From Candidatus Woesebacteria bacterium (GTDB taxonomy: Bacteria; Patescibacteriota; Microgenomatia; UBA8517): DNA of 64,000 nucleotides. The stretch lies in NCBI GenBank assembly GCA_016432365.1, contig CP066686.1, positions 1,002,918 through 1,066,917 on the forward strand, written 5' to 3'. A program made the translations under genes and the position numbers. How positions within the stretch are numbered: position 1 is the stretch's first letter; every line of letters begins with the position of its first letter. Shown piece by piece: positions 28,271 to 63,099 of the stretch. The notes under the pieces were generated by a model. It was given only the letters and a program-made list of their open reading frames with translations. It was not told where the DNA came from and made no database searches.

Positions 28271-28320
28271 CGCTTGCCAAACAAAATGTCAAAACTTACA
28301 TTTTGTTTTAATATGACTAT

Positions 28321-29536: not shown

Positions 29537-31636
29537 TCACTCTGATATTGCACTTAGACCACCCCAATTGGTAACCACCCACAAGTTCTTGCCGACAAGA
29601 AAGTCGGCTACGTCTTTACTGAGAAGCCCATCAGACGGTCCATAGAGCTTGTAGGAACCGGTTTGCGGATCGTAGCTGATTAACCCCCTGTTGGATGTAA
29701 TCCAAAGTTTGGAGTGAGCAAATATTAGTTTTCCGAATACCGGATCGCTCACCGAGTCAAAAGGTGAATAATTAGCTTCTAAAACCGGTGGTGTCAGGGT
29801 CTTGGTATTTCCACTTGCTATGTCGGTTTCCACAATCTTATTTTCAACATTTTTCCAACCTAGATTTCCGTTTGTGACAACGCCCGTACAACCGTCATCT
29901 CCGAATTTGTTGCCGTTTGTTTTGTAAGTATAGACGCGGTTACAAAAAGATACTCCGTTGGTAACAAATTTGTCGGCTCCTGTGGGAATGTCAGTAGCAA
30001 GACTCCACCCGCTCGTGTTTATGTCATAAACAATATATTTGTCAGTTCCATTGTCTGTATAGCTAAACCCGATTTTGCCGTTTTTAAAATCGCGCCAGGA
30101 TGGAGATAGCGAATTATAAAAAACTCCTCCCCCAAACCCTTTACTTGTAATTGATGAAACAACCGGAGGAGGTAAAGAAAGTTCTTTTACAGTTCCGTCG
30201 GCGTAATTATAGATATATGAAAAAGGCTTCTCACATCCTTGTCCACAAACCTGACGGAAGATAAATACGTCAGTGGTACCTGGAATCGGTTGAAATAACG
30301 GCATACTAAAATTGCCATTAAAACCGCTTAAATTATATAAAATGGATATAAATTTACCTTGTTCTAAAGAATACTTGTAAATACCTGCGTTTGTATCCAA
30401 AACCGGCTCTTCGTCAATTAGTGCAAGAACTTGTCCAAAGGCCTCCGGCCTGTCTTTTAACTGATAGCTTGAAATCTGTTTTGATGTTAGATCCAAGACG
30501 TTTATAAATTTATCCGCCTTGTTGAAAACACTAAACCATAAAATATTTCCTGTAGATTTATATAAAATATTGGGATTTTCTTTTCCAAAATCGAAAAGGG
30601 TCTCCGTCGTCTCTGTGTCCGGATTAAACTTATAAATTTTACTACCGGAATAAACAAGAATGCCATCCGAGACGGTGTTTTTGAGAAGTCTGACAACACT
30701 AAAATCCGTCGTCAAATCTTTTATAATAAAACTGCGGGGAGGTTCGATCTTTCTCCAGGACGCATCAGCATTCTCATCTATTACAAATAACTCTTTATCG
30801 TCAGAAACAAATACCTGATTACCAAATGCCGAGATTGAATTAAAGTCCGTTCTTGCATATTGATCTGTCCTTCCAAAATCACCCGGCTTAAACGCTTTGA
30901 AAGTTCCACCAAATTTATCGAATCTGATTACTGCCCCGCTACTATAGACACTGGCTACTTCCAAAAAATACACATATTTATCGGTAACCAACATGTTAAC
31001 CACATTCCTTTTTTCGGCTTCAGCGTCAAGTTCTGAAGTGTAATTAGTAAGAGTACCTTTATTCGGATCAAGCAAGCTCACTCCGTCAAAAGTGGCAACC
31101 CAGATTTTATCGCCGTCCGCCGCCAATTCGATATTGGCCCCGTTGACCAGACCTTCCTTAACACCTATTTTTTTTGCCTCCCGGGTTTTAAGATTAAAGA
31201 CACTCACCCCGTCCTGTGTGCCGATATATAAAATGTCCCCTCTTTTGATTATGGAATTGGCTGTCGCATCCCCCATTCCTTCGGCTACACTTATCTGGTC
31301 GCGCACTTCACCTGTCTTTTTATCAAGCACTAATACACCTCCAAGACAACCGACATAAAGCAAGTCTCCTTCTTCAATAACTTGTCTCTTATCTTCGCAG
31401 TTAATCCAATATTTGGGCGTTTTAAAATTAGCTTGACCCGAAGAAGGAACACCGCCAACTGTCTTTATTCCCTTTTTAAAAATCAAAAAATAATAACCTG
31501 CTATCGAAGCTACGATTATAAAAAATATCAATACTATTCCCCAAATAATTTTACTTTTGGAAGGTGGAGGGGTAACGGGCACTTGAACAGGTAGAGTTTC
31601 TTGTAGACCGGGATCAACTATCGGAGCTTGCTCCAT
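29537..31636 (-). CDS. Membrane-anchored beta-propeller repeat protein
   Basis: N-terminal TM. Repeated GD(L/I)LY(V/I)G..GV.V(F/L) blades resemble two-component-regulator-propeller or PQQ-like repeats. Confidence 0.45.
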   Translation of the reverse strand: MEQAPIVDPGLQETLPVQVPVTPPPSKSKIIWGIVLIFFIIVASIAGYYFLIFKKGIKTVGGVPSSGQANFKTPKYWINCEDKRQVIEEGDLLYVGCLGGVLVLDKKTGEVRDQISVAEGMGDATANSIIKRGDILYIGTQDGVSVFNLKTREAKKIGVKEGLVNGANIELAADGDKIWVATFDGVSLLDPNKGTLTNYTSELDAEAEKRNVVNMLVTDKYVYFLEVASVYSSGAVIRFDKFGGTFKAFKPGDFGRTDQYARTDFNSISAFGNQVFVSDDKELFVIDENADASWRKIEPPRSFIIKDLTTDFSVVRLLKNTVSDGILVYSGSKIYKFNPDTETTETLFDFGKENPNILYKSTGNILWFSVFNKADKFINVLDLTSKQISSYQLKDRPEAFGQVLALIDEEPVLDTNAGIYKYSLEQGKFISILYNLSGFNGNFSMPLFQPIPGTTDVFIFRQVCGQGCEKPFSYIYNYADGTVKELSLPPPVVSSITSKGFGGGVFYNSLSPSWRDFKNGKIGFSYTDNGTDKYIVYDINTSGWSLATDIPTGADKFVTNGVSFCNRVYTYKTNGNKFGDDGCTGVVTNGNLGWKNVENKIVETDIASGNTKTLTPPVLEANYSPFDSVSDPVFGKLIFAHSKLWITSNRGLISYDPQTGSYKLYGPSDGLLSKDVADFLVGKNLWVVTNWGGLSAISE

Positions 31637-31682: not shown

Positions 31683-32795
31683 CTAACGCAAGTAGTTAAG
31701 GGGATTAACTCGTGTACCATTTAGATAAATTTCAAAATGGGTATGTGGGCCGGTTGAATGCCCGGTAGATCCCATCTTCCCAATTGTGTCTCCTCTTTTA
31801 ACATTCTGCCCACTTATAACCATTATTTGACTCAAGTGTGCGTAGCGGGTCTTAAATCCGTTTCCGTGATCAATCAATACCATGTTTCCATATCCTGTGG
31901 AATCCCATCCTGCATAAACAACATGTCCGGCATCAGCCGCGATATTCAACGGAAGTGCATTGTTGGCAATATCAATCCCAGGGTGGTACCAAGAATGCCT
32001 CTGTGTAATGACTCCCTGCGTTGGCCAGACAAATTGTCCTGAAGCAACAACCGTACCGGCATCGGGTGTAACTTGTCTCGGACGAGGGGTAGAAGCGGTC
32101 GCCACCGGCATTACTCCATCCGGGACAATCACTGTTTGCCCAATAGCCAATTCAAAAGTTTCATCGTTGGAAAAAGAATTAAAAGGAAAGTCGACCACCG
32201 CCTGAGATTCTGAATCATACCGCTTGGCTATCGAGTAAACTGTATCCCCTTTCACAACTTTATGGGCAATACCTGTTACCGGAAGAATTTGAAGGGTCTG
32301 ACCAACTTTTATTTTGTCCTTTGTCAGATTATTTTGCCATCTAATTGTATCTACCGAGACCCCAAACTTCTGAGCAACCGAAGCAACTGTATCCCCGCTC
32401 TGAACTTGATAATCAATAATACTATCCCTTACTTTACTAGATATCTGTGTATCAAGTCCGGGATCGTCGGTTGAGGCGGATAAAACCGCAGGGGCCGCAG
32501 AAACTGCCCAAGGGTTAACACTTCTACCCGGGAACTCTTGGGCAATCATTGGTGCCATCATAACCCCAACAGCAGCGAGAATCGCCATACCGGTGTGGGT
32601 TAACTGGCGCGAACGTTTACCCCGCTCCTTATAAAGTGAGGTTACGAAAAATCCTTTTTTCTCTTCAAATTTAAGAAAACTTATATGAAGTGATCTAAAT
32701 ATAAACTTTGTAAGTTCAAAAAAGAAGAGTTTGATATCTTCCCACAGAGCCAGTAATGTTTCAAAAGTTTCATCCATAAAAAAATCAAAATGCAA
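31683..32795 (-). CDS. Peptidase M23 (LytM-type) with two LysM domains
   Basis: YQVQSGDTVASVAQKFGVSVDTIRWQNNL and HKVVKGDTVYSIAKRY are LysM. HPGIDIA and GSTGHSTGPHTHFEI are M23 HxxxD/HxH motifs. Annotated 5' end overlaps an AT-rich repeat, so the true start is probably an internal Met (MAILAAVGVMM). Confidence 0.75.
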   Translation of the reverse strand: MHFDFFMDETFETLLALWEDIKLFFFELTKFIFRSLHISFLKFEEKKGFFVTSLYKERGKRSRQLTHTGMAILAAVGVMMAPMIAQEFPGRSVNPWAVSAAPAVLSASTDDPGLDTQISSKVRDSIIDYQVQSGDTVASVAQKFGVSVDTIRWQNNLTKDKIKVGQTLQILPVTGIAHKVVKGDTVYSIAKRYDSESQAVVDFPFNSFSNDETFELAIGQTVIVPDGVMPVATASTPRPRQVTPDAGTVVASGQFVWPTQGVITQRHSWYHPGIDIANNALPLNIAADAGHVVYAGWDSTGYGNMVLIDHGNGFKTRYAHLSQIMVISGQNVKRGDTIGKMGSTGHSTGPHTHFEIYLNGTRVNPLNYLR

Positions 32796-32893
32796 AAATC
32801 AAAATGCAAAAGTTCAATTCAAAATTAAAAATTAGAAAACTTTTTATTTTTAACCTGTATTTTTGACTTCTAAATTTTGACTTTTGAATTCCC
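32781..32893. repeat. AT-rich AAATCAAAA...CTTTTGAATTCC element (intergenic copy)
   Basis: Shares start motif AAATCAAAA(T/G), internal GTTTTTATTTTTA and end CTTTTGAATTCC with the insertion inside 23S at 56346..56452. Confidence 0.4.
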
Positions 32894-33010
32894 ATCATAT
32901 CCCATGAAACATTTTGAAGCAAACTTTGGGGATGGGGAAAAAATAAACTCAAAATTTAATTGTTCACTCTTCCCAACCTTGTTAAGAAATGCTATCCTGA
33001 CTGCGCAAAT

Positions 33011-33235
33011 ATGAAATTTGGTGAAAGATTGGCAGCCACTCGAAAAGCGAATAGATTAACTACCCAAACTGTTGCAAAAACTAGCGGGGCGTCGAGGAGC
33101 TATATTACTTTAATAGAGACTGGGAGACGAATGCCGGGAAGAAAATTAATTCCCAAAATTGCAAAATCCCTTGGACTCAAGAGCGAGACAATTATTGACT
33201 GGTACCTCGAAGATATTAGAGAAAAACTTTTATAA
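33011..33235 (+). CDS. XRE-family helix-turn-helix transcriptional regulator
   Basis: MKFGERLAATRKANRLTTQTVAKTSGASRSYITLIETGRRMPGRKL is a classic HTH_3. Internal start chosen within ORF 32960..33235. Confidence 0.6.
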   Translation: MKFGERLAATRKANRLTTQTVAKTSGASRSYITLIETGRRMPGRKLIPKIAKSLGLKSETIIDWYLEDIREKLL

Positions 33236-33448
33236 CCCCCCTCAAAAAAACCAATATCGTAGCTCTTACAAATAGGGTTATTTTAAAACTTACAAATAAA
33301 GCTTGCCCAAAAAAGACATTGCAGTCGTGATATTAAAACACAAAGGGGCAACTTTTTTCTTCTCACCTCCTAAAGTGATAAATGATACTCACCTGATCCA
33401 CTGATTGTTGACAAAAAAAACAGGTGATATATTCTTAAAATCATAACT

Positions 33449-43432: not shown

Positions 43433-44062
43433 ATGACAGAACGATTGCACCACGGCGTTATTGCATATGCCACCTCTCCCCGTCCTCCCGATTGGCTGCA
43501 CGACATCAACTGGAAAGCTTACTTGGATCGTTATAATTTGAGAGAAAGCGGAAGTCCGTTTTTTGTAAACGAAACAAGAATCATAGATCATGTAGCAGGA
43601 TCCGTTATAGAAAAAGCTCTCAGTTTTCCTGAAAACACTGGCAAAAAAGGAGTTGTCCTCGCAATCGGCCACCGAGGTGACCTTTACATACCTCCCGTAG
43701 CAGTTAAATATGGCGAGATAAATGCCAGTGATCCGGAATTCATCAACAAACTTAATAAATACACCTATTACGCGCTTTTTAAATCTCATTTTCTTATTCA
43801 ACACACCGAGCTTTTTGCTTCCCAGCAAAACTTGAAGCTTCCCGAGGGTGAGGTATGGAAAATCGACAATAATAACTTGCCGGGTGGAGCAATCGCATTT
43901 AAAAACGGTGTTGTTCTCGGAGTTTCCGGGCTGGCAACAGGAGAACAAGACTCTGCTTTGGTGCTTGCGATCGGGGTTAAAGCCCACTTGGTGCGTCCTC
44001 AGGTCGCTGCCGGTATGGCCAAAGATATTGGGTTCGCACGGGAATACCAAAAATTCATCTGA
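43433..44062 (+). CDS. Protein with C-terminal GlcG/HbpS-like (DUF336) domain
   Basis: GGAIAFKNGVVLGVSGLATGEQDSALVLA matches the GlcG-family core. First Met of the track ORF (43418) lies within the TATAAT box, so the start was moved to 43433. Opposite-strand ORF 43406..44050 rejected. Confidence 0.5.
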   Translation: MTERLHHGVIAYATSPRPPDWLHDINWKAYLDRYNLRESGSPFFVNETRIIDHVAGSVIEKALSFPENTGKKGVVLAIGHRGDLYIPPVAVKYGEINASDPEFINKLNKYTYYALFKSHFLIQHTELFASQQNLKLPEGEVWKIDNNNLPGGAIAFKNGVVLGVSGLATGEQDSALVLAIGVKAHLVRPQVAAGMAKDIGFAREYQKFI

Positions 44063-45497
44063 GAGAAATCTTCTTTATCGCCTGACTTAAAAAGGCTACG
44101 TCTTTTGAGCTTACAGGTATTGTAAACCCCATTCTTTTAGCCTCTTTCAATCTTTTATCCTGGGCTACTACTTCGCGGATTTCTCCAAGAAGTCCAACTT
44201 CCCCCACCGCAATGACTTTAGGAGAGATCGGCTTGTCGTAATATGACGAAGCTACAGCCAAACAAATTGCCAAATCGCTTGCCGGTTCTGTTACTTTTAG
44301 TCCCCCTGCAACATTTACAAAAACATCGTGATCATACATTGGAAGTCCACATCTTCGGGTTAATACCGCGAGTAAAAGTTCCAGACGTCTTGAGTCAATT
44401 CCTTGCGCAACCCTACGAGGAATGGCCAATTTTGTGGGAATAACAAGGGCTTGAATTTCTACCAAAAGAGGGCGTGTTCCCTGCATAACCGAGGTCACAA
44501 CACTACCCGAAACATTCTTAATTCCTTTCTCAAGAAAGGCTTTTTCCAAATCAGCTATTGGCATAAGCCCCGTATCCCGCATCTCAAATACACCTACTTC
44601 ATCCGTGGGACCAAACCTATTTTTAACTGCCCTCAAAACACGTGTAGTTAGGGTCTTGTCACCTTCAAACCATAAAACCGTATCAACTATATGGGCCAGT
44701 ACAGCAGGTCCGGCAACAGTACCTTCTTTGGTAACGTGCCCCACAAGAAACAGTGGAATCTTTTTCTCTTTAGCAGCATGTAGAAGTCGGTTGGCACACT
44801 CACGGACTTGTCCTACACTCCCCGCCATGCCGGAAAGATCGGATGTAGTCATGGTTTGAATTGAATCGACTATAACAGCGGATAGCGAAGAGCTAAGCGT
44901 TAAAAGCGATTCGATAACACTATCTACATCTGTGTCTTCCAGCATTTGAATCCCCTTACTTTTGACTCCCAATCTTTTTGCTCTAATGGCAACCTGATTG
45001 GCAGACTCTTCACCACAGACATACAAAACCGAAGACTGATGCAAGAGATTTGAAGTCTGATTGTGAAGTTTGACATTCGAAGTTTGAAGTCCGATTTCAG
45101 TTTTCTCATTTCCAACTTCATCATCTTGTTTCACTCTTCCATCGTCTGATTTCGACAGATTGTCAGCCAGTTGCGTCAAAAGGGTGGATTTACCTATGCC
45201 AGGTTCACCTGCAATAAGCACAACCTGTCCCGGAACCAGCCCTCCGCCAAGTACACGGTCCAGTTCGGAAATTTTTGTTGAAATGCGTTTTGTATCCGCC
45301 TGTTTTATATCCGAAAGGTTTATTGGCTTTGAGTTTGAGACTTTTGAGCCTTGTTTCGAATTTCGAATTTGAGATTTCGAGCTTTCTGTGACTGTTTCTA
45401 CAAGCGTATTCCACTGGTCACAGTTAGGGCACTTCCCCATCCAACCGGTAGATTCATAGCCACATTGTTGACAAACATATTTTGAATGAAAAGCCAT
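44055..45497 (-). CDS. radA: DNA repair protein RadA/Sms with low-complexity insertions
   Basis: C4 zinc finger CQQCGYESTGWMGKCPNCDQWNT. Walker A GEPGIGKST. KNRFGPTDEVGVFEM motif. Lon-like C-terminus. An extra ~40-aa K/D/Q-rich insert follows Walker A. Confidence 0.85.
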   Translation of the reverse strand: MAFHSKYVCQQCGYESTGWMGKCPNCDQWNTLVETVTESSKSQIRNSKQGSKVSNSKPINLSDIKQADTKRISTKISELDRVLGGGLVPGQVVLIAGEPGIGKSTLLTQLADNLSKSDDGRVKQDDEVGNEKTEIGLQTSNVKLHNQTSNLLHQSSVLYVCGEESANQVAIRAKRLGVKSKGIQMLEDTDVDSVIESLLTLSSSLSAVIVDSIQTMTTSDLSGMAGSVGQVRECANRLLHAAKEKKIPLFLVGHVTKEGTVAGPAVLAHIVDTVLWFEGDKTLTTRVLRAVKNRFGPTDEVGVFEMRDTGLMPIADLEKAFLEKGIKNVSGSVVTSVMQGTRPLLVEIQALVIPTKLAIPRRVAQGIDSRRLELLLAVLTRRCGLPMYDHDVFVNVAGGLKVTEPASDLAICLAVASSYYDKPISPKVIAVGEVGLLGEIREVVAQDKRLKEAKRMGFTIPVSSKDVAFLSQAIKKISLR

Positions 45498-45584
45498 GAG
45501 CCAATAATACCAATACTACGAATTAATACCAGAGCATTATGTCCAATATTGAAAACTACTAAATTATATAGTCATATTAAAACA

Positions 45585-45645
45585 TAGAATTCCTATATAC
45601 CGAACTCAAGACAAAGACGATATTTTGTTTTGAGTTCGCTATAGG
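45585..45645. repeat. About 60-bp palindromic element (copy 2) in the divergent radA/metalloprotease promoter region
   Basis: GAATTCCTATATACCGAACTCAAGACAAAGACGATATTTTGTTTTGAGTTCGCTATAGG. Homologous to 28196..28270. Confidence 0.4.
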
Positions 45646-52897: not shown

Positions 52898-52919
52898 TTC
52901 TATTTCAAGGTATTGTTCT

Positions 52920-53035
52920 GGCGATGAGATATTTTCGCGGTAGGTTGCCCCACAACTATCGTCTCCGCTGACCCGTTTCACTTCTGTGTTCGGAAAGGGA
53001 ACAGGTGGTACCAGGTCGCACAAATCACCAGAACA
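52920..53035 (-). rRNA. rrf: 5S ribosomal RNA
   Basis: Reverse complement matches the conserved 5S core: CGTTTCACTTCTGTGTTCGG...AGGTGG...CCAGG. Confidence 0.7.
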
Positions 53036-53289
53036 ATAACTTGAAAACAGAATTTAATTTTCTTGCAAGAAAATTAAACCTGGTTCTCTAATTTTTCAGA
53101 AGAAAAATTAGCAAATATCTTTTTTTAAGAAAAAGGCCGCGTCCCACTTATGTGAGGGATCGCAAGAAATCGACCAATTCGCATTAGTAGCCTTAATCCC
53201 TTACGGGACTTCCAGCGCTAACCGATTAACCCGATATTCTGTCGGGGGTCTAACGATACTTTCGTATCAGGAATCCTAATCTCGGAGGC

Positions 53290-53322
<33 letters not shown>

Positions 53323-53500
53323 GTTGGGAATGTAGCTACCCGGCGTTACTGCTGATGCAATAACCGGCACACCAGGGATTCCCCCAGGGAGGTCCTCTCG
53401 TACTGTCCCCAGCTCTCCTCAAGATTCCAACGCTTCTACAGGATAGAGTCCGACATAATTGTTTTAAACCCTGAACACACTCCTGTGTTTCAGGGACCTA

Positions 53501-53974
53501 CGATCGCTCGTAGGATCCGACTATATCTTTCCCTCATAGCCCTTTAGGGCGACGTGGGATTTGGCGTATAGTCTGTGAGGATTCCATAATAAAATCAAAA
53601 ATTAAAAATCAAATATCAAAAATGCAGATTGGAACTTTTGTCCCAATATTTACTTTTTAATATTTTATATTTGATATCACTATGGTCTTTCCTGCTGATT
53701 GTCCGCAGTTGCGCATTTTTACCACTTTTTAAATGGTAGTGCAACATACACCGGATTTTCCAGCAAATAGTCCCACTTCACTCTTCCGAGTTTCGTGGGA
53801 GCCGCCGTAGCCTTTCAGCGTAGGTGGCCCAAATTTATTTCCTGAACTGGTATCAGGATTCTATAGGTATAACAAAATATACTAAACCTCTACTTTCTAG
53901 TAAAAACTAGAAATGATTCACAACGTTGTATAGAAAGACAGCTTAGATTGTCAGCACAATATGTTAATGTGCTC
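53501..53974 (-). mobile_element. About 470-nt insertion in 23S at the conserved ...GTCGTGAGACAGTT | (T)AGGTCCCT junction: putative ORF-less group I intron
   Basis: Flanking exon sequences are contiguous in E. coli and Bacillus 23S. Upstream exon ends in T, and the insertion ends in G. Contains an AT-rich hairpin-like segment at 53575..53700. No ORF of 60 aa or more. Confidence 0.4.
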
Positions 53975-54009
<35 letters not shown>

Positions 54010-54477
54010 TCACTTTAACGGGCGAACAGACCGACCCTTGGCACCTTCTTCAGCGCCAGGATGTGATGAGCCGACATCGAGGTAGCGAACCGCGCCGTCG
54101 CTATGGACGCTCGGGCGCGACTACTCTGTTATCCCCGGGGTAGCTTTTATCCATTAAGCTCCGTGCACACCCATTGTGCATCGGAGGATCATTAAGACCT
54201 AGTTTCCTACCTGCGCGGGATGTATCCCTTGCAGTCAAGCTGGCTTAAACCTTTGCGCTTTACCCACCGTTTCCATCGGTGGAAAGCCAACCTTTGTGTC
54301 CCTGCGTTACATTTTGGCAGGGTACCGCCCCAGTAAAACTGCCCAGCAAACACGTTTCCCCTCGCCGTCTCCAGGCGAGTAAAGTAAGCTTCACATTTTC
54401 CAACGAGTGGTATTACATATTATGACGAATCTCCCACCTATTCTAGACAATCAAAAAATATGAAAGCAATGTCTACT

Positions 54478-54508
<31 letters not shown>

Positions 54509-55481
54509 ATGTAGAAGTAGGCCGCGTCTTCACAGCCATCGCTATTTCGCCGAGTAAACTCTCAAGACAGTTGCTAGCTCGTTACGCTATTCATGCGGGC
54601 CAGAACTCACCTGGCAAGGAACTTCGCTACCTTAGAACAGTTATAGTTACTGCTGCCGTTCACCGGAGCTTCAATTCAGAGCAATTCATCTTGCGACAAG
54701 CCACCCCTCTTCTTAACTTACCGGCACTGGACAAGCGTCAGCCCGTATACTTCGACTTTCGTCTTTGCACGGACCTGTGTTTTTGGTAAACAGTCGACTA
54801 GCAAACTTTCGGTGCCCCCCTCATAGCCTTACGGCGACGTGGGGAACCCATCTCCCAAAGTTACGGATAGTTTTTTTGCCGAGTTCCTTGAGAATTTGTC
54901 TCTCGATCACCTTAGGGTACTCCCCCAGTTCACCTGTGTCGGTTTGCGGTACGGCTTAGTTTGACTCTCGCTGCGAACCTTTTCCTGCAAACTGAAACGT
55001 TCAGAATCCCCCATCTCGCGACAGAGTTTACATGACTGCTCGATTAAACATACTGCGGGATTTTCCACACAATACTGTCTTGCAGCTTGAACCCAAATTC
55101 AATAATGGGCCCTGATTTTCCAATTTGGTCAATCCCCAGCTTATCCTTGCGGATTTTTCGATTCAAACCAAATAGTAGAATTTTGACTACTCTTCCATCG
55201 ACTACGCCAATATGGCCTCGCCTTAGGTACCGACTAACCCACTGTGAACGAATCTTGCAGTGGAAACCTTGAACATTCGGTGCTACCGATTCTCACGGTA
55301 ATTGTGCGCTACTCAAGCCGACATTCTCACTCCCGACCGCTCCACCATGTCTTACAACACAGCTTCACCGCTGTCGGAACGCTCCCCTACCACTCCGTCA
55401 TAATAAATTATGACAAAATTTCTAGCTTCGGCATACAACTTATCCTCGATAAATCTTGGGCGCACGCGCCCTAATCGACCA

Positions 55482-55538
<57 letters not shown>

Positions 55539-56104
55539 TTTCGGACACGTACTTCCTTTTAAACTTAGTTGTAATTTAGAGGCCTTAGCTGAAAATCTGG
55601 GTTGTTTCCCTTTCGACATATCAGCTTAGCCCGATATGTCTGTCTAGTATGATAATTAACGTTAGTATTCGGAGTTTAATTGAGTTGAATTGCTTGCGCT
55701 CTCCAACCCATCTAGTGCTCTACAGCCAACATAACTTTACATACCACGGTCCCTATAGACCTTTCGGGGAGAACCAGCTATCTCCAGGTTCGTTAGGTAT
55801 ATTGCCACTAACCACAAGTCGTCCCATGTCATTGCAACGACAACGGGTTCGGGCTTCCACAGATATTTCTATCTCCTTCACCCTGCTCATGGTTAGCTCA
55901 CCTGGTTTCGGGTCTGATCTAATTTTCTTTTCGCCTTTTAAGACTTGGTTTCCCTACGCCTCCCCAAATAACTTGGTTAGACTAGAAAATTAAAACAACT
56001 CGCCGGCTCATTCTTCAATAGGCACGATATCATCCTTTTAAGGGGACTCTATCGGATTGTTCGCAAACAGTTTCAGGTTCTATTTCATTGAGTGTTTCAC
56101 TCAG

Positions 56105-56141
<37 letters not shown>

Positions 56142-56330
56142 CTCTCTCATCTTATTTAGTCTTGGAGGATGGTTCCCCCCGTTTCCCACAGAATATGTGT
56201 TCCGTGGTACTTAGGAAATCCCTAGAGGCAAAATTAGTTTAATATACGAGGCTTTCACTCTCTGTGGCCGGCAATTCCATACCGTTCTACTACCAATTTT
56301 ACTCTCACATCGGGCTCCTGCAACCCCCCC

Positions 56331-56467
56331 ATGCACAGCACACGGAAATCAAAAGTTAAAATTTAAAAATCAAAAATACAAGTTAAAATTCAAAAGTTTT
56401 TATTTTTACTTTTGAATTGCACTTTTGCATTATGACTTTTGCTTTTTGAATTCCTTGTGCTGTGCAC
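56331..56467 (-). repeat. AT-rich hairpin insertion/expansion in 23S domain I, bounded by ATGCACAGCACA / TGTGCTGTGCAC inverted repeat
   Basis: The 107-bp A/T-rich core is homologous to the intergenic element at 32781..32893. Confidence 0.45.
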
Positions 56468-56481
56468 AAAGGTTTAGACTG

Positions 56482-56513
<32 letters not shown>

Positions 56514-56861
56514 TCGCTTGATTTATATTCCTCGCCCTACTGAGATGTTTCAGTTCGGGCGGTTCCCACATTAGCCTTTATAACATTCCTTGCGGAACAC
56601 ATTTGGAGGCTAAGTTTCCAGCAAAGCTGGAAGGGTTTCCCCATTCGGACACCGTCGGATCAATGGATCGTGGCTCCTACCCGACGACTATCGTGACCAT
56701 GTACGTCCTTTTTCGGAGATGAGAAGCAAGGCATTCACTGTCTGCGTTTCTTACTCTTGCGATCCCACACATCTCTTGCACATCAAGAGATTGGGACGCG
56801 ACCTTCTTCTTAAAAAAATATTTTCAAATTTTAACGTTCTATTTTCCGCCGCTAGACGGAT

Positions 56862-56910
56862 CAGTGCGGACTTAGTAGGAATCGAACCTACTTGTATAAC
56901 CATAAAATCC
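56862..56910 (-). other. tRNA-like fragment (acceptor plus T-arm only) in the rRNA spacer
   Basis: Reverse complement reads GGATTTT-ATGGTTATACAA-GTAGG-TTCGATT-CCTAC-TAAGTCC. Intact T-arm, no D or anticodon arms. Sits where tRNA-Ile usually lies. Confidence 0.25.
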
Positions 56911-56936
56911 TTTAAATTCCTCTACCAAAAATTTTG

Positions 56937-57010
56937 TGGACCCGGGCGGAGTCGAACCGCCTGCCTCCTCATTGCAAATGAGGTGTTCAAGCCAGGTAAA
57001 CTGCGGGCCC
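56937..57010 (-). tRNA. tRNA-Ala (anticodon UGC), rRNA-operon spacer tRNA
   Basis: Reverse complement reads GGGCCCG...CCTCA-TTTGCAA-TGAGG...GGCGG-TTCGACT-CCGCC-CGGGTCC-A with G3:U70. Confidence 0.8.
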
Positions 57011-58342: not shown

Positions 58343-58864
58343 CTACTCATTACAGTCCGGTACTTTAAACCGTGTCTCAAATCCAACTGTTGAATCCGGA
58401 CTCATTAGGGCGCGAAGTGTGTAAACACCCTCGGAAAAGTCCTCAGGAATGCCTGTGATAGCATCTGTCATTCCACCCTTAAGGACAAAGTTGTCCGCTG
58501 TGTCTTTGATGTACGCCAGAAAAGTGACGAACCCATGGGAAGACTCCACCACTAAATAGTAATTTCTCAATTCCGGCGGAAGATTTGTAATTATAACCAG
58601 CGCGATCTGCTGATATGGGTTTACACTGGAATACACACAGGACACCGTAATTTGTGGGCTGGCGACCCGATCAGAGTTTTGAGTAACTGCGGCTTCTGTG
58701 GAATTTCCATTGACAATAACTACGTCATACTCCACATAGGCGGATTCGCTTACAACTTCTTGTCGTGTTGTCTGCCCACCTGCAAACAGGACTATCAAGA
58801 TGGCAGCTAAAAATAACACCGTCAAGATTAACAGTCTATTTAAAATGCTAGAGTTCATGTTCAC
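58343..58864 (-). CDS. Small N-terminally anchored extracytoplasmic protein (array unit A, gene 4)
   Basis: TM LLILTVLFLAAILIVLFAG. Preceded by hairpin/Shine-Dalgarno element H1 and followed by T1. Confidence 0.5.
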   Translation of the reverse strand: MNMNSSILNRLLILTVLFLAAILIVLFAGGQTTRQEVVSESAYVEYDVVIVNGNSTEAAVTQNSDRVASPQITVSCVYSSVNPYQQIALVIITNLPPELRNYYLVVESSHGFVTFLAYIKDTADNFVLKGGMTDAITGIPEDFSEGVYTLRALMSPDSTVGFETRFKVPDCNE

Positions 58865-58942
58865 TCCTTCCGAGAAATTTGATTAGGAGCAGAATCCTTG
58901 CTTGGTAACTTACCAGCAGTCAAGGCCTTGCTCCTGAAAGTG
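58865..58942 (-). repeat. Intercistronic hairpin plus Shine-Dalgarno element H1
   Basis: Fills the whole gap from the stop of 58943..59482 to the next ATG. Terminal inverted repeat GGAGCA..TGCTCC encloses CAAGGCCTTG and TTGGTAAxTTACCAA palindromes. GGAAGGAG lies 7 nt before the ATG. Confidence 0.55.
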
Positions 58943-59482
58943 TTATTGGTACACACACCCCTCAGGCGTTACAGAACTATAGAACTCGTAGATATACACC
59001 GGGCCCACAATTGATGGCAATGCGCTCATCCCGTATGCGAAAAGGCAAAACTTCGCGTTCTGTGGTGCCAGGCGGACCCAAATTTTATCGGGTTTAAGGC
59101 CTGCCGGCGGCTCATAGGCTGTCAGTAAATCTCCGTCTGCGTTGAGGAAATAGATCGTCGAATCTTCAGACGCTCTATACCAATTCGAGTCCGAACGTTG
59201 GTGACTCGTCTGATAACTCACGATCTTTCCGTTGTGGAATTGCAATTCAACATAGACAAAAACCGGCAGATCGTACTCAGCCCCCAATTCGACCAAGGCT
59301 TCGTCTTCGGTCAAGATAAACGCTGCCTCAGGAGGTAATTGTGCCAAGGCACCTTGCCACCTGGCTATCATTTCGAGGTCTTTGATCTGATCAGAGCGGA
59401 CGCTCAAATCAGCAAGAACCAAAATGACCGACAAAAACAATGTTCCAATTGCGATCTTAGTGATAGATACGCCTTTGTTCAT
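58943..59482 (-). CDS. Small N-terminally anchored extracytoplasmic protein, paralog of 61210..61752
   Basis: TM IAIGTLFLSVILVLADL. Similar length and motifs (W..L.Q.P, YL.P) to the unit B first gene. Confidence 0.5.
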   Translation of the reverse strand: MNKGVSITKIAIGTLFLSVILVLADLSVRSDQIKDLEMIARWQGALAQLPPEAAFILTEDEALVELGAEYDLPVFVYVELQFHNGKIVSYQTSHQRSDSNWYRASEDSTIYFLNADGDLLTAYEPPAGLKPDKIWVRLAPQNAKFCLFAYGMSALPSIVGPVYIYEFYSSVTPEGCVYQ

Positions 59483-59573
59483 TTTTCCTCCAGAAAAATT
59501 TAAATATTAGGAGCAGAATCCTTGCTTGGTAACTTACCAACAGTCAAGGCCTTGCCCCTTTGAGTTTATTCGA
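59483..59573 (-). repeat. Intercistronic hairpin plus Shine-Dalgarno element H2 (TTTAAATATTAGGAGCAG variant)
   Basis: Same core TTAGGAGCAGAATCCTTGCTTGGTAACTTACCAACAGTCAAGGCCTTGCCCC. Confidence 0.55.
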
Positions 59574-59795
59574 TCACAACTGCCTCAAAATCTCGGCTAC
59601 TTTGTCATTCAAATCAGGTATTTCCAGAGAACTTGCGCTTTCCAACTTTTTATACAGACTTTTTAGTCTGGATACCAAATACAGTCTGTGCAAGATCAGA
59701 AAGATTATAAAACCACCCACTAAAAGAACCGTGGCCAAAAATGGGGTTGCCATTACTTCCCCAAAATCCGGACGATCCAAGAGATGTGCAAACAT
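59574..59795 (-). CDS. Tiny single-pass membrane protein (73 aa)
   Basis: TM FLATVLLVGGFIIFLIL. GGAAGGAGG Shine-Dalgarno sequence upstream. Plus-strand ORF 59560..59883 rejected. Confidence 0.4.
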   Translation of the reverse strand: MFAHLLDRPDFGEVMATPFLATVLLVGGFIIFLILHRLYLVSRLKSLYKKLESASSLEIPDLNDKVAEILRQL

Positions 59796-59871
59796 GAAAG
59801 CCTCCTTCCAATATCACGAACTTCCCGACACGCCGAGCCTCTCGGAGTTGTTCTTGCAAGGCCTTGCCAGA
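59796..59871 (-). repeat. Divergent intercistronic hairpin element (variant)
   Basis: GGCAAGGCCTTGCAAG palindrome plus GGAAGGAGG, at the same relative position as H elements. Confidence 0.3.
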
Positions 59872-60309
59872 TTAAGGTTTTAGAACCTTTTTCAGAGCTT
59901 CGACTCCTGTGATATATTCTGGATTAATTACCAGATCCGGCAAAATCTTTGAAATTTCAACCAATCGTCGATAGCTTTGGAGATAAACTTTCAAATCAGC
60001 CATCATTTCTCCAACAGACATGCTCTCGACAGTAGCTTTGTCACTACTCTTAGCACGAATCGTTTCCATCCTTCGATTGATTTCGTCCCATTCGCGCTTA
60101 AGCCTGATTTCCCGATCTATGCCTATTTTGAAGGCAAGACGTATAAACAAAGCGCACAGGCCCAGCGCTGTTAAACCCAAACCTGCACAAAATATAGCAA
60201 TGCCAAAATGTTTGGTGGAAAGAAAATTTACAACGTTGACCAAACTACCAATTGCGGTCATGAGGGCGAAAAACGCAGCCCCTAACCAAATATAACCACT
60301 TGGTTTCAT
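59872..60309 (-). CDS. Small two-TM membrane protein (array unit A, gene 1)
   Basis: Two hydrophobic helices, then a charged coiled C-terminus. Confidence 0.45.
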   Translation of the reverse strand: MKPSGYIWLGAAFFALMTAIGSLVNVVNFLSTKHFGIAIFCAGLGLTALGLCALFIRLAFKIGIDREIRLKREWDEINRRMETIRAKSSDKATVESMSVGEMMADLKVYLQSYRRLVEISKILPDLVINPEYITGVEALKKVLKP

Positions 60310-60550
60310 TTTTTCTCCTTGAATTTATGGGGTATACAACAAACAGTCCCACATGGGACTGGAAAATAAAGAAAGTTTTAAACGTTAATGTACAGTCGGC
60401 AGGATACCACATTTGAAGCTAAAAGTCAAATACTATAGGGGCGCAGTCCCGCAGCGTATAAGTCTTTAAAATAGCATGCAGACCCCGTATTCACGCTATT
60501 TCGACGCAAACACGCAGTATTTGGGAACAAGTAAGTTCTATGCTGGGGCC
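60310..60550 (-). promoter_or_regulatory. Repeated promoter-leader module A: TTGACT-17-TATCCT plus conserved 5' UTR hairpin CAGTCCCATGTGGGACTG
   Basis: -35 at 60414-60419 and -10 at 60391-60396 (minus strand). About 200 bp homologous to 61753..62035 and 63469..63685. Confidence 0.5.
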
Positions 60551-60593
60551 AAAAAAAAGGCGGGGCCTAATCAAAATGATTTTGGCGCCCGCC
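60551..60593 (-). terminator. Conserved intrinsic terminator T2
   Basis: Same GGCGGGCGCC...GGCCCCGCC-T8 sequence as T1. Confidence 0.6.
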
Positions 60594-60597
60594 AGTA

Positions 60598-60819
60598 CTA
60601 ACCTAGAAACATAAAAACCAACATCAGGATGCCTGAAACAATCGCCACCACTATCATTGTGGGTATGAATACATTCAGCATCTTGTTTACTTTCGATCTC
60701 AGTTGTCGCAACGGTACGCCAGGCATTAAAAGCCTGTATACCAGTGGGGACATGGCAATTCCCAAAACCAGCACCAAGAGGCTGATCCAAAAGATCCAAG
60801 AAAAGATCGTAAGAGCCAT
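60598..60819 (-). CDS. Tiny two-TM membrane protein (73 aa)
   Basis: Hydrophobic throughout. H3 element immediately upstream. Confidence 0.45.
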   Translation of the reverse strand: MALTIFSWIFWISLLVLVLGIAMSPLVYRLLMPGVPLRQLRSKVNKMLNVFIPTMIVVAIVSGILMLVFMFLG

Positions 60820-60901
60820 TTTTTCTCCTTCCGAGAAATTTGATTAGAAGCAGAATCCTTGTGTGGTATGAAAACCATAGTCAAGGCCTTGCCCCATTGA
60901 G
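60820..60901 (-). repeat. Intercistronic hairpin plus Shine-Dalgarno element H3
   Basis: Conserved ends. Apical part changed to TGTGGTATGAAAACCATAG while still self-complementary. Confidence 0.55.
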
Positions 60902-61120
60902 CTACCAATCACGCCGAGCCTTATCGAGCTCTACTTTCAAGGCTGCTTTCAAGGTCGGATCTTGCTCGGCTTCGTATTTTTTTTGCAATTCGATCTTTTT
61001 GTCGGTCGCCTTTATTTGCCCCCGAATGAGACGGAACATGAAAGCGAAAAACAAAATGCCAAAAAAGATGATCGGGTACAGCGGATCACAAAAATCGATT
61101 GATTGTGGGGAAAAGTTCAT
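60902..61120 (-). CDS. Tiny single-pass membrane protein (72 aa) with K/E-rich tail
   Basis: TM IIFFGILFFAFMF. Family with 62813..63013 and 62140..62307. Confidence 0.45.
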   Translation of the reverse strand: MNFSPQSIDFCDPLYPIIFFGILFFAFMFRLIRGQIKATDKKIELQKKYEAEQDPTLKAALKVELDKARRDW

Positions 61121-61209
61121 TTTCTCTCCTTCCGAGAAATTTGATTAGGAGCAGAATCCTTGTGTGGTATGAAAACCATAGTCAAGGCCTTGCCCCATTG
61201 AATAGTCGT
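61121..61209 (-). repeat. Intercistronic hairpin plus Shine-Dalgarno element H4
   Basis: Near-identical to H3. Confidence 0.55.
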
Positions 61210-61752
61210 CTAGAAGTCACAACCGTAACTAAACGATTCCCCTTTTGTCCAAATCTGAACAAAAGTCAATCCGCTTTCAAGACTGTAAGTCTCGACTTTT
61301 ACCACATTACGATACTCACAGTTGGGTACATCGTCGGGACTGAGATAGACAAAAAGATCGTCTGGTCCACCCGACTCAAACTTGTATGACCCAAGAATGT
61401 TTCCATCTTCATCGGCATACCAAAGTCTGCCGGGGATTTTAGCGATGGGCCAAGCCTCTGCCTCAAGGGCGTAGTGGTGCATCGGACTTAGGACTGCGGT
61501 TCCATTGTCGACCACGATCACTTCGTCCGAGTCATTGATAGGGATTTTGTACTTCTGCCCCAACTCGATACTGTCGAGATTTCGAGTCAGAATCATACCC
61601 GAGCCGGTAGGAACTTGATTCAAAAAACTGTTCCACTTAGCCAACTTGTCTAGCTCATATTGCTTGTGCTCCAAGCGGATAAATCCCAAGGATGCAATAA
61701 ACAAAATTGCCGCGGCCAATATCAATGGTAGACTTCCGTTTCGATATTGCAT
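61210..61752 (-). CDS. Small N-terminally anchored extracytoplasmic protein (array unit B, gene 1); start moved to Met-19 of the track ORF
   Basis: The upstream 18 codons of ORF 61210..61806 overlap the conserved leader. GAGAGGAGAAAAC precedes MQYRNG. TM LILAAAILFIASLGF. Confidence 0.5.
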   Translation of the reverse strand: MQYRNGSLPLILAAAILFIASLGFIRLEHKQYELDKLAKWNSFLNQVPTGSGMILTRNLDSIELGQKYKIPINDSDEVIVVDNGTAVLSPMHHYALEAEAWPIAKIPGRLWYADEDGNILGSYKFESGGPDDLFVYLSPDDVPNCEYRNVVKVETYSLESGLTFVQIWTKGESFSYGCDF

Positions 61753-62035
61753 GTTTTCTCCTCTCGAGAATTTGAATAGATTTGATGGATACAACGACAG
61801 CCCCACATGGGACTGAATAAGAAAGTTTAAAGCGTTAAAGTACGAGTAAAATGCCCTTTTTTAGAGCCTGCCATGATACCACATCTGAAGCTAAAAGTCA
61901 AATACTATGGGTACCAGAGCTAAAGCTCATAAGTCTTTAAAATAGCATGCAGACCCCGTATTCACGCTCTTTCGATGCAAACACGTAGTATTTTGAGAGA
62001 AAGTAAGTGTAATACTGGGGTCAAGACTACAGGAC
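61753..62035 (-). promoter_or_regulatory. Repeated promoter-leader module B: TTGACT-17-TATCAT plus conserved leader hairpin
   Basis: -35 at 61896-61901 and -10 at 61873-61878 (minus strand). Leader contains CAGTCCCATGTGGGGCTG. Upstream about 90 bp are conserved across copies. Confidence 0.55.
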
Positions 62036-62061
62036 ATGTACCAGCCCCGGTACATGTTTCA
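62033..62061. promoter_or_regulatory. Palindrome GGACATGTACC-AGCCCC-GGTACATGTTTC (copy 2) just upstream of promoter module B
   Basis: Same 9-bp half-sites as 42128..42154. Confidence 0.35.
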
Positions 62062-62095
62062 CTCCACCGGCAGGTACAAGCTTCATTCTACCAAA

Positions 62096-62139
62096 AAAAA
62101 GGCGGGGCCTAATCAAAATGATTTTGGCGCCCGCCTGGT
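62096..62139 (-). terminator. Conserved intrinsic terminator T3
   Basis: Identical core to T1 and T2. Abuts the stop codon at 62140. Confidence 0.6.
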
Positions 62140-62307
62140 TTACTTTGAAACTTTCTTTGAATCTGGTTTGTATAACCTGTCCAGGTCAATATGGATTTTT
62201 TCCAGAGTGTCATTAATCACTCTCAACCATGAACATATCATACTGGCACCAACCACGATGCCAAAAAAAATGACCAAACCAGCGATGATTAGACCGACAA
62301 TCTCCAT
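62140..62307 (-). CDS. Tiny single-pass membrane protein (55 aa; below ORF-track cutoff)
   Basis: Minus-strand translation is MEIVGLIIAGLVIFFGIVVGASMICSWLRVINDTLEKIHIDLDRLYKPDSKKVSK. Preceded by H5 and followed by T3. Confidence 0.45.
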   Translation of the reverse strand: MEIVGLIIAGLVIFFGIVVGASMICSWLRVINDTLEKIHIDLDRLYKPDSKKVSK

Positions 62308-62410
62308 TCTTCCTCCTTCGGAAAGAATTTAAATATTAGGAGCAGAATCCTTGCTTGGTAACTTACCAACAGTCAAGGCCTTGCCCATATGAGTCCAGTT
62401 GACAGCCTGA
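62308..62410 (-). repeat. Intercistronic hairpin plus Shine-Dalgarno element H5
   Basis: TTTAAATATTAGGAGCAGAATCCTTGCTTGGTAACTTACCAACAGTCAAGGCCTTGCCC variant. Confidence 0.55.
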
Positions 62411-62734
62411 TCAATCCTGAATTTCGATGTATATCGGCCTGTCAAAATCAAATGGTTTCAACACCGTTTCGATACCAAACAAGGACAGTGTATCAAAAAG
62501 GACAACCTTGTACGGATCGCCTACTTCGATAACCGCAATCAGTTGATTGTTGTCATCTTTGATTGCGACCAGATATGAACCATCGTGACCTGGAATTGAA
62601 AGTGTGTGTCCGGTTTCGGCCACCTCGGCATGCCAATCGAAAGATTTCAGCAGCCTTCCGGCTTGTCTCAGGTAATCGACCAATATAAACCTTTTGGTCA
62701 GGCGACCTATACGTCGAACGTAGAATGTAGCCAT
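62411..62734 (-). CDS. Small soluble protein ending ...IYIEIQD, paralog of 63741..63983
   Basis: Shared VAETG/VAETD and C-terminal (F/Y)IEIQ motifs with the unit D gene. Confidence 0.45.
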   Translation of the reverse strand: MATFYVRRIGRLTKRFILVDYLRQAGRLLKSFDWHAEVAETGHTLSIPGHDGSYLVAIKDDNNQLIAVIEVGDPYKVVLFDTLSLFGIETVLKPFDFDRPIYIEIQD

Positions 62735-62812
62735 TTTTTCTCCTTCCGAGAAATTTGATTAGGAGCAGAATCCTTGCGCTCTAAAGCTTTCAAGGCCTGC
62801 TCCTAAAAAGGT
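62735..62812 (-). repeat. Intercistronic hairpin plus Shine-Dalgarno element H6
   Basis: Perfect terminal inverted repeat TTAGGAGCAG...CTGCTCCTAA. Middle replaced by a GCGCTCTAAAGCTTTCAAGG palindrome. Confidence 0.55.
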
Positions 62813-63013
62813 TTATGTTTTTGCACGAGCCTCATCAAGGCTTTTTTGAATATCTTTCCGCGCCGTCTCTCCAGCTTTCTCAAGCTGTGATTCCAACCGT
62901 GGAATCACAATGAATTTCAAATAAATTTGATAGCCGAAAACCGAAAAGACCAGGAGAGTTCCCAATACAGCCATGATCATAAAGACTGGGGCCATTGCTT
63001 CGTCAAATCCCAT
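62813..63013 (-). CDS. Tiny single-pass membrane protein (66 aa) with K/E-rich tail
   Basis: TM VFMIMAVLGTLLVFSVFGY. Confidence 0.45.
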   Translation of the reverse strand: MGFDEAMAPVFMIMAVLGTLLVFSVFGYQIYLKFIVIPRLESQLEKAGETARKDIQKSLDEARAKT

Positions 63014-63099
63014 TCTTCCTCCTTTGGAAAGAATTGAATGTTAGGAGCAGAGACCTTGCTTGGTTTAAACCAACAGTCAAGGCCTGCTCCTATGATTGT
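63014..63099 (-). repeat. Intercistronic hairpin plus Shine-Dalgarno element H7
   Basis: TAGGAGCAGAGACCTTGCTTGGTTTAAACCAACAGTCAAGGCCTGCTCCTA. Apex GGTTTAAACC keeps the palindrome. Confidence 0.55.

Follow-up and report, generated by a model that had tools for sequence, protein, structure and literature searches.

An AT-rich dispersed hairpin repeat forms the core of an intervening-sequence-type insertion in a 23S rRNA gene of Candidatus Woesebacteria

INTRODUCTION

Where does a short hairpin that interrupts a bacterial 23S rRNA gene come from, and what becomes of it when the gene is transcribed? The question is raised by a stretch of 64,000 nucleotides (contig CP066686.1, positions 1,002,918 to 1,066,917; hereafter the window, numbered from its first letter) from Candidatus Woesebacteria, which belongs to the Microgenomates group of the Candidate Phyla Radiation (CPR), or Patescibacteria. 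In the 23S rRNA gene of the window an AT-rich hairpin sits at the tip of a helix of domain I, and a closely similar element lies in a spacer between protein-coding genes. Both elements had been noticed in a first-pass annotation of the same DNA, made by a model from the letters and their open reading frames (ORFs). Here the two elements are compared with each other and with copies from other genomes, and the readings that could account for them are weighed.

It was reported that insertions of ≥100 bp are present in 82% of CPR 23S genes (Tsurumaki et al. 2024, PMC11270868). Those that are not introns and hold no ORF, mostly <200 bp in length, are uncharacterised, and the short non-intron insertions at known sites of intervening sequences (IVS) are considered to be probable RNase III substrates (PMC11270868). 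Repeats and palindromes are unmentioned in that paper and in the same authors' 2022 paper, and no description of a link between rRNA insertions and dispersed repeats in CPR bacteria was found in open-access papers and preprints.

RESULTS

The domain I insertion and its intergenic homologue

The 23S rRNA gene lies on the minus strand of the window and is interrupted twice, by one hairpin insertion in domain I and by one probable group I intron in domain V. The initial Rfam match to the gene ended at 53930, and a second search of the 3′ part moved the 3′ end to ~53170. Covariance-model alignment showed that the domain I insertion, with a length of 131 nt, replaces the 6-nt terminal loop of a hairpin at model positions 274-296, which bears out the placement in 23S domain I by the first-pass annotation. 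The insertion site falls between E. coli positions 275 and 283, where E. coli is without a hairpin. Judged from its place between the strands of what we take to be H14 and H16, the insertion-bearing hairpin is probably H15. In the window, H25 and H45 both have the form of short native hairpins. The features in question are listed below, where family A stands for the dispersed repeat described in the next section.

53170..56761, minus strand: 23S rRNA gene; Rfam LSU_rRNA_bacteria, 2045.7 bits, model positions 1-2912
56331..56467, minus strand: whole IVS-type hairpin (base stem and AT-rich core) at the tip of the H15-equivalent hairpin
56456..56467, minus strand: 5′ half of the base stem (in the RNA), GUGCACAGCACA; pairs with 56331-56342
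56331..56342, minus strand: 3′ half of the base stem (in the RNA), UGUGCUGUGCAU; pairs with 56456-56467
56348..56452, minus strand: AT-rich palindromic core, copy 1 of family A; profile 69.5 bits, E = 1.5e-20
32775..32892, plus strand: copy 2 of family A; profile 67.1 bits, E = 9e-20

An inverted repeat, ATGCACAGCACA at 56331-56342 and TGTGCTGTGCAC at 56456-56467, closes a hairpin of 147 nt with a folding energy of -56.9 kcal/mol (z = -9.1), and none of 200 shuffled sequences folded equally well. The hairpin starts with a 17-bp closing stem and continues into an AU-rich helix, giving a long, near-continuous duplex of the kind suited to RNase III. The insertion was found to consist of two modules, a GC-rich base stem and an AT-rich core, and the core has an architecture of 7-nt units, (NNCAAAA)n ... 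(TTTTGNN)n. The first-pass annotation had described the inverted repeat as the boundary of the element. The inverted repeat is indeed present, but it is no boundary of the dispersed element; it forms a distinct, conserved stem, which was found at the copies in rRNA operons only.

The copies in the 23S gene and in the spacer were compared by alignment. Local alignment of copies 1 and 2 gave a score of 80, compared with 14.9 ± 2.9 for mononucleotide shuffles. When heptamer blocks were shuffled within the arms, a null that preserves the A-rich/T-rich arm layout and the repeat unit, the score was 37.7 ± 4.8 (z = 8.9). The copies are 86% identical over their whole length, which is above the mean (74%) and the 95th percentile (84%) of between-contig comparisons in the family, and copy 1 is the nearest relative of copy 2 among 42 copies. 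Copies 1 and 2 are homologous by position, beyond shared composition. This agrees with the first-pass claim that the same ~110-bp AT-rich element is found in the 23S gene and in intergenic DNA; a likeness in A/T composition only, which the annotation itself had named as the outcome that would speak against it, is not what the heptamer-block shuffles returned.

One detail of that annotation had to be corrected, i.e. the direct orientation in which it had compared the copies. As inverted repeats, 32775-32892 and 56344-56459 are 83% identical over 63 nt and 88% over 57 nt, whereas in direct orientation the identity is 73-75%. The plus strand of 32775-32892 corresponds to the rRNA-sense (minus) strand of 56344-56459, and the two are collinear end to end; being palindromic, the element can be aligned either way round. 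In the Logan assemblies of two sequencing runs, one contig (L001) is identical at the intergenic region and another (L002) terminates inside the element, as contigs tend to do at repeats. An assembly artefact was ruled out, as an independent Logan assembly has the same sequence at this locus and four proteins of the window match their entries in the NCBI genome record exactly.

A repeat family dispersed in Patescibacteria

A 23-nt pattern common to both copies was searched in one genome per GTDB species, and 41 loci matched. The profile made from the two copies matched all eight loci from Patescibacteria, namely loci of Daviesbacteria, Roizmanbacteria, Staskawiczbacteria and Saccharimonadales and two from a single unclassified genome; seven loci held a whole or near-whole element and one (L043) mainly one arm. 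Among the 33 loci from outside Patescibacteria, mostly Flavobacteriia and Prochlorococcus, there was no full-length match and one partial match. Family A is confined to Patescibacteria among the sampled genomes. In JGI metagenomes, a second scan with a shifted pattern found at least 120 loci. Once the profile had been rebuilt, in a single round, the matches listed yielded 42 distinct full-length copies from several CPR phyla. The family profile was built from 37 distinct copies and the alignment takes in 29 copies; both copies of the window match the profile at full length.

The element is an imperfect AT-rich palindrome of ~105-116 nt. One arm has A4 tracts and the opposite arm T4 tracts, at intervals of 7 nt; these tracts are invariant across the 29 aligned copies, and the 3-nt linkers vary. 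The irregular features CTTGTA and TTTTAAATTTT occupy the same register across copies. Their conservation is overstated because both search patterns partly enforce them; the conservation outside the search patterns, left arm included, is not forced in this way. Copies from different phyla reached profile E-values of 1e-18 to 1e-24, and the orientation of the element is well defined, with a difference of 20-50 bits between the strands. Most copies fold far better than shuffled sequences on either strand (median z ~ -4). Neither at the gathering threshold nor at permissive E-values did any Rfam family match the element. Family A behaves as a dispersed repeat without genes of its own.

Loci with one copy hold ~2.7 further copies per 100 kb of flanking DNA, and the window holds 2 in 64 kb; extrapolated to a genome of 1 Mb, these densities would amount to a few tens of copies. 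In three assemblies the contig breaks off within the element. Three pattern matches were seen in viral contigs and none was a real copy, so these contigs gave no sign of phage carriage. The element ends, AATTCAAAAG and CTTTTGAATT, are inverted repeats; as the whole element is palindromic, this bears little on whether it is a miniature inverted-repeat transposable element (MITE).

As a separate observation, some copies (L045 2562-2687, L082 2219-2344, L101 642-775, L136 1056-1182, L109 282-396 and L072 50-160) contain a nested GC-rich palindrome, ATCCGCCAGCTGGCGGAT with minor variants, in the left arm. It seems that a second small palindrome was inserted into the left arm of family A in these copies.

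A common base stem beneath exchangeable cores

Inspection of related 23S genes showed that the insertion is sporadic among relatives and sites. In a metagenome contig (L142) the H15 site is empty and ends in a short hairpin with a GCAA loop. H25 of the same gene carries a family A element (80.8 bits), which has the opposite orientation relative to the rRNA compared with the window. The stem beneath it, GTGCGTAGCAC...GTGCTGTGCAC, is a GC-rich stem near-identical to that of the window, GTGCACAGCAC...GTGCTGTGCAC. A Staskawiczbacteria 23S gene (L028) has two insertions, family A at about E. coli positions 1730-1760 and another in the 5′ part. A further comparison was provided by a close relative, Woesebacteria GW2011_GWB1_39_10 (L168), whose S1 protein falls in the 90%-identity cluster of the window's. 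Its hairpin insertions are found at H15, H25, H45 and one further 23S site, and also in the 23S leader. The cores of these hairpins are built on other 7-nt units: TAATTAG at H15 and H25, AATTTTC at H45 and the fourth site, and AAATCCG in the leader. All of them are closed by the same base stem as the hairpin of the window. The filled sites are H15 only in the window, H25 only in L142, two in L028, and four 23S sites and the leader in L168.

Homologous base stems, with the motif YTYGTGCNNNGCACRAG, were found under eight other hairpins of L142, L168 and L028, seven of them within 23S and one in the leader. In an alignment of the stems of eight such hairpins, 90.3% of cells were paired, compared with 82.2% in shuffles, and none of 500 shuffles reached the observed value; when the registers were slid by 1-3 columns, at most 61% of cells were paired. 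Compensatory changes were observed at 7 of the 22 base-stem pairs, the central three positions included. In the rRNA sense there were 28 G·U-type and 8 A·C-type pairs. Only a stem that pairs in the transcript would be expected to show such an asymmetry, which makes the base stem a feature of the RNA level. Because the stem is kept at unrelated helices and in the leader, it is most simply understood as a processing signal.

The third hairpin, in the probable group I intron

The first-pass annotation had also pointed to a looser third relative inside the putative intron (53575-53700). The intron and its hairpin are as follows.

53454..53975, minus strand: probable group I intron without an ORF, ~522 nt; insertion point after E. 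coli position 2604
53584..53685, minus strand: AT-rich hairpin of TTTGATT-type 7-nt units in the terminal loop of the intron P6 domain

The intron appears in the alignment as a 537-nt insertion in domain V. It matched Intron_gpI with 34.7 bits (E = 7.5e-7), below the gathering score of 50, and its P7 strand, AAGAUAUAGUC, is conserved. Insertions in CPR rRNA genes have been reported at position 2604 (PMC11270868). The third hairpin is real as a hairpin (fold z = -4.3 for 53575-53700) and forms a 73-nt insertion in a P6-type hairpin of the intron model; its kinship with family A, on the other hand, is marginal. The family profile scored it at 12.4 bits (E = 0.008; 53595-53659, minus strand), and ~1% of heptamer-block shuffles did equally well. 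The intron hairpin is of the same kind as the family A hairpins, and its membership of the family is doubtful; for this hairpin an independent origin may apply. L168 has a homologous intron, in which the P6 position holds that genome's own TAATTAG-type hairpin.

The slot upstream of the peptidase gene

Copy 2 was examined together with its neighbours.

31683..32777, minus strand: LysM/M23 metallopeptidase gene, the start codon of which abuts copy 2
32894..32922, minus strand: conserved block TTGCTT-N17-TATGAT upstream of copy 2, kept in L174, L176, L177 and L178

Copy 2 fills the gap between the conserved block and the ATG of the peptidase gene, antisense to the family model. The block might be the peptidase promoter, although a consensus promoter scan did not call it. 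If it is, copy 2 would make up nearly the whole 5′ untranslated region (UTR), and copy 2 could thus, if weakly, be read as the 5′ UTR of the M23 peptidase gene. A promoter or terminator within the element itself was rejected: the scan of 32500-33300 gave no terminator-like site, and the one promoter-like site found (2.5 expected) lies outside the element.

The orthologous slots were traced from peptidase orthologues of 80-91% protein identity. Between the block and the ATG there is family A in the window, a AAATCTAC-type hairpin in L174, an AAATCCG-type hairpin in L177, half an arm in L176 and nothing in L178. Upstream of the block, L174 carries a short family A copy (43.3 bits), and L176, which is the same relative as L168, carries a TAATTAG-type hairpin, judged by eye to be of the type of that genome's 23S hairpins. 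It was concluded that the sites are stable, and that their contents turn over and tend to match the repeat types of the genome. Occupancy differs between related 23S genes as well as between orthologous intergenic sites, and repeat types agree within a genome.

In three of these relatives the M23 peptidase gene is followed by a Y1 gene resembling those of REP-associated tyrosine transposases (RAYT; L174 3595-4482, L176 3652-4706, L178 3601-4370), which matched Pfam Y1_Tnp with 40 bits and the NCBIfam model of REP-associated tyrosine transposase with 42 bits (cutoff 80). These genes are flanked on both sides by a GC-rich 23-mer palindrome, TTGACAGGGTGCGACCCTGTCAA, unlike the AT-rich element. 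In the window a 699-aa PQQ-like gene takes the place of the RAYT-like gene, one TTGACAGGGTGCGACCCTGTCAA palindrome is left at 29517-29541, and no Y1 gene was found. RAYT was hence discarded as the partner of family A, given the different, GC-rich palindrome at its flanks and the window without a Y1 gene.

Placement of copies relative to genes

The positions of the copies outside rRNA were tallied against the called ORFs; for one contig (L027) an ORF call set by hand was used over the automatic one. Clear of ORFs were 34 of the 39 copies, which often fill the whole spacer, and 5 overlap an ORF. Among the copies flanked by ORFs on both sides, those between co-directional genes are sense in 9 cases and antisense in 12. 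This orientation, random with respect to transcription, argues against an orientation-specific function of the RNA. Within 30 nt of an element end, 25 gene starts were found.

Two side observations concern the same subject. In L094 (1325-1434), a glycosyltransferase-like ORF of 389 aa includes one arm of the element in frame, translated as QNQKSKFKNQNYNSKLKIF; this resembles the palindromic elements inside Rickettsia genes. A Shine-Dalgarno-like motif was seen in the 20 nt before the ATG in 6 of 37 long ORFs of the window, with crude start calls, and translation initiation here seems largely independent of Shine-Dalgarno pairing. The idea that the hairpin presents a Shine-Dalgarno sequence to the start codon was dropped because of the rarity of the motif.

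The rRNA operon and other repeats of the window

According to Rfam, the rRNA operon (52916-57010) comprises tRNA-Ala(UGC) at 57010..56936, the 23S gene, and 5S at 53032..52916. A 16S gene was not found within 7 kb upstream of the 23S operon. The 23S gene is flanked by an inverted repeat of 33 nt with 88% complementarity, the arms of which are given below.

56792..56824, minus strand: 23S 5′ flank, arm of the pre-23S long-range processing stem; pairs with 53114-53146
53114..53146, minus strand: 23S 3′ flank, arm of the pre-23S long-range processing stem; pairs with 56792-56824

Other repeats were noted in the window. Among the minus-strand genes at 58856-63064, six copies of a conserved block of ~84 nt lie directly upstream of small paralogous ORFs, and a GC-rich hairpin, AAAAAAGGCGGGGCC...GGCGCCCGCC, occurs three or four times nearby. 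The small ORFs have no Pfam match and the leader region matches no Rfam family; the region has the appearance of gene cassettes arranged in tandem, with a common, possibly structured leader. A two-copy repeat of ~85-130 nt, at 28200-28330 (plus strand) and 45560-45644 (minus strand), has an internal inverted repeat, AACTCAAAACAAAAT...TTTTGAGTT, and sits upstream of a Fic-domain gene (28321-29277) and of radA (44055-45497), where it may be a common regulatory region. Finally, an ORF of 2271 aa at 4970-11785 contains long glycine-rich stretches encoded by GGTGGAGGTGG repeats.

DISCUSSION

A repeat that probably also serves as an intervening sequence

The reading that we favour, with a probability of roughly 0.6, is that the insertion belongs to a family of hairpin repeats which spread by copy-and-paste and which also serve as intervening sequences of 23S rRNA, with the base stem being cut by RNase III. 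As a kind of insertion it is a known one. It resembles the short non-intron insertions reported in CPR 23S genes (PMC11270868) and the IVS of Salmonella, Yersinia, Campylobacter, Leptospira, Coxiella and other bacteria, in which an AU-rich stem-loop of ~100-150 nt replaces the tip of a 23S helix with a sporadic distribution, and the relatives of the window use the classical H25 and H45 sites. IVS are generally regarded as being excised by RNase III, with the ends left unjoined; by analogy, RNase III excision is likely for the insertion in the window too. It differs from IVS in its site, the H15 equivalent, in the combination of a conserved base stem with an exchangeable core, and in the source of the core, a mostly intergenic family of several CPR phyla.

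In mechanistic terms, the base stem would be the double-stranded site at which RNase III cuts the insertion from pre-rRNA, and excision would split the 23S rRNA into fragments of ~300 nt and 2.6 kb. The cores would spread at the DNA level, via copy-and-paste or gene conversion, and copies would survive in AT-rich spacers and where the DNA already codes for a hairpin tip, at rRNA helix tips and in the P6 loop of the probable group I intron. At a helix tip, a palindrome would do no more than extend the helix on the solvent side, so that either orientation may be acceptable.

Several results weigh against this reading. With respect to transposition, filled and empty 23S sites differ by replacement of the native hairpin tip, and no clean insertion was seen. 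Over the 42 copies, no target-site duplication or conserved flank was found beyond A/T richness, which would still be compatible with a duplication of 1-2 A/T bases, and the 498 clustered ORFs neighbouring copies include no partner transposase, only housekeeping families. The earlier description of the element as a MITE-like small repeat is therefore retained in one part, since the element is dispersed and has no genes of its own, and not in the part that implies transposition with target-site duplication and a partner enzyme. With respect to the RNA, the base stems were selected and aligned by hand from 8 hairpins, five of them from one rRNA operon. RNAalifold gave no consensus structure for the core alignment, a failure that is likely due to loop indels and to the 7-nt register, which shifts pairs. 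The transcribed strand of the copies folds no better than the other (sense better in 11 cases, antisense in 7), a tally without signal, and strand-specific RNA selection on the core was rejected. With respect to the mode of spread, copies in different CPR phyla are 75-85% identical. If the AT-rich sequence were neutral, such identity would imply repeated horizontal transfer, or else purifying selection; the latter would mean function rather than selfish spread. Also, where ORFs flank a copy on both sides, 6 copies have divergent neighbours and none has convergent ones, a split that hints at a link with gene starts.

Alternative readings

A hairpin of the same origin might instead be kept in the mature large subunit, as an expansion segment on the solvent side of domain I. 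We regard this as a lesser but appreciable possibility. The insertion hairpin continuously extends the native helix, and H15 is naturally extended in several bacteria, where it is solvent-exposed, and contacts bL9 in Mycobacterium (PMC5737476). In Mycobacterium tuberculosis the expansions of H15 and H25 face the solvent side of the large subunit (PMC5737476). CPR bacteria are reported to be often without bL9 and uL1 (PMC9297842). Against retention, however, the base stem is kept at no fewer than five different 23S helices and in the leader, for which a shared processing signal is the simpler account; the free swapping of AT-rich cores between relatives speaks against a structural role; and short CPR 23S insertions at classical sites are viewed as RNase III-cleaved IVS (PMC11270868).

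We consider it unlikely that the element was taken up at many sites as a functional cis-module, rather than as selfish DNA, and that purifying selection maintains it there, whether as a processing or stability hairpin, as an array of 7-nt protein-binding sites, or as a 5′ UTR element for a host that rarely uses Shine-Dalgarno pairing. The A4/T4 tracts, invariant every 7 nt in 29 aligned copies from several phyla, would suit such a module. So would the 6-to-0 split between divergent and convergent genes, the 25 gene starts close to element ends, the position of copy 2 between a conserved -10-like box and the ATG, and the Shine-Dalgarno-like motif in just 6 of the 37 long ORFs of the window. But the orientation of the copies is random with respect to transcription (9 sense, 12 antisense), and in orthologues of 80-91% protein identity the slot is empty or holds unrelated hairpins. 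The core also yielded no consensus structure or covariation with RNAalifold, no promoter- or terminator-like site was found in or beside the element between 32500 and 33300 (1 found in the scan, 2.5 expected), and Rfam does not contain the element.

Independent origin of the copies at each site, by slippage of A/T-rich heptamers and palindrome formation, with a resemblance that is convergent and compositional, is highly improbable: both arms are tandem 7-nt units, hairpins of other 7-8-nt units fill the same slots in relatives, and the P6b hairpin of the Nostoc trnL intron likewise consists of 7-nt repeats (PMC4476775), but the positional alignment stands out even against heptamer blocks shuffled within arms (z = 8.9), the profile E-values across phyla are 1e-18 to 1e-24, CTTGTA and TTTTAAATTTT keep the same register (partly enforced by the search patterns), and 20-50 bits between the strands define the orientation.

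Comparison with known repeats

Small palindromic dispersed repeats that are transcribed as hairpins are known from other bacteria, such as Correia elements in Neisseria, ERIC/IRU in enterobacteria, RUP in pneumococcus and the Rickettsia palindromic elements. They are gene-less imperfect palindromes of 100-150 bp with tens of copies per genome. They occupy short intergenic spacers and 5′ UTRs, in either orientation, and are transcribed together with the genes. Among them, Correia hairpins are cleaved by RNase III and Correia elements duplicate TA, and Rickettsia elements are also found inside genes. Family A is like Correia, ERIC, RUP and Rickettsia elements in being a gene-less palindrome in short intergenic spacers in either orientation. 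It is unlike them in that no target-site duplication or partner transposase was found, in its arms of 7-nt units, in its range over several phyla within a single superphylum, and in its occurrence at rRNA helix tips.

The REPIN/RAYT system (Bertels and Rainey, PMC3116915) is comparable in that the repeats are hairpin-forming, gene-less and extragenic, with a population of its own in each genome, and in that relatives of the window have a single RAYT-like Y1 gene flanked by palindromes. The palindrome at that gene, however, is TTGACAGGGTGCGACCCTGTCAA and not the AT-rich element, and the window is without such a gene. For the intron hairpin, the closest parallel is P6b of the cyanobacterial tRNA-Leu(UAA) group I intron, which is made of 7-nt repeats, TDNGATT or NNTGAGT, in a region that is replaced wholesale between relatives (PMC4476775). 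Here as well, a peripheral P6 hairpin consists of complementary 7-nt arrays, with TTTGATT units in the window and another unit in L168; the difference is that the host gene is a CPR 23S rRNA gene, and that the intron hairpin resembles the hairpins of the genome's rRNA and intergenic DNA. Hairpin-forming organelle repeats, reported as RHE in sponge mitochondria (PMC2800124) and as palindromes in Volvox (PMC2670323) and Lobosphaera (PMC4524435), are likewise selfish-looking palindromes in the spacers of compact genomes; they are organellar and unrelated to family A in sequence.

Implications

What appears to be new is that the core of the insertion comes from a dispersed, mostly intergenic CPR family, that one base stem is common to many helices, and that the cores are genome-specific and exchangeable. 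A wider picture can be proposed only tentatively, in which modular hairpin cassettes occur throughout the CPR, each with a conserved processing stem and an exchangeable core of 7-nt units, form genome-specific populations, and are actively copied among rRNA helix tips, P6 loops, leaders and 5′ UTRs. If true, such a cassette system would explain many unexplained short insertions in CPR rRNA genes and would involve an undescribed mechanism that targets hairpin tips, possibly a Y1-type single-strand DNA transposase or hairpin-templated gene conversion.

With the family profile and the motif of the base stem, such insertions can be searched for in other genomes, and the insertions need to be masked in CPR rRNA annotation, primer design and phylogenies. 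At least some of the uncharacterised CPR 23S insertions are copies of a dispersed intergenic hairpin placed on a conserved base stem, and the common base stem is a candidate site for cutting them out. A reduced genome of ~1 Mb appears to carry tens of copies of such a repeat, at a density of ~3 per 100 kb here and in other carriers.

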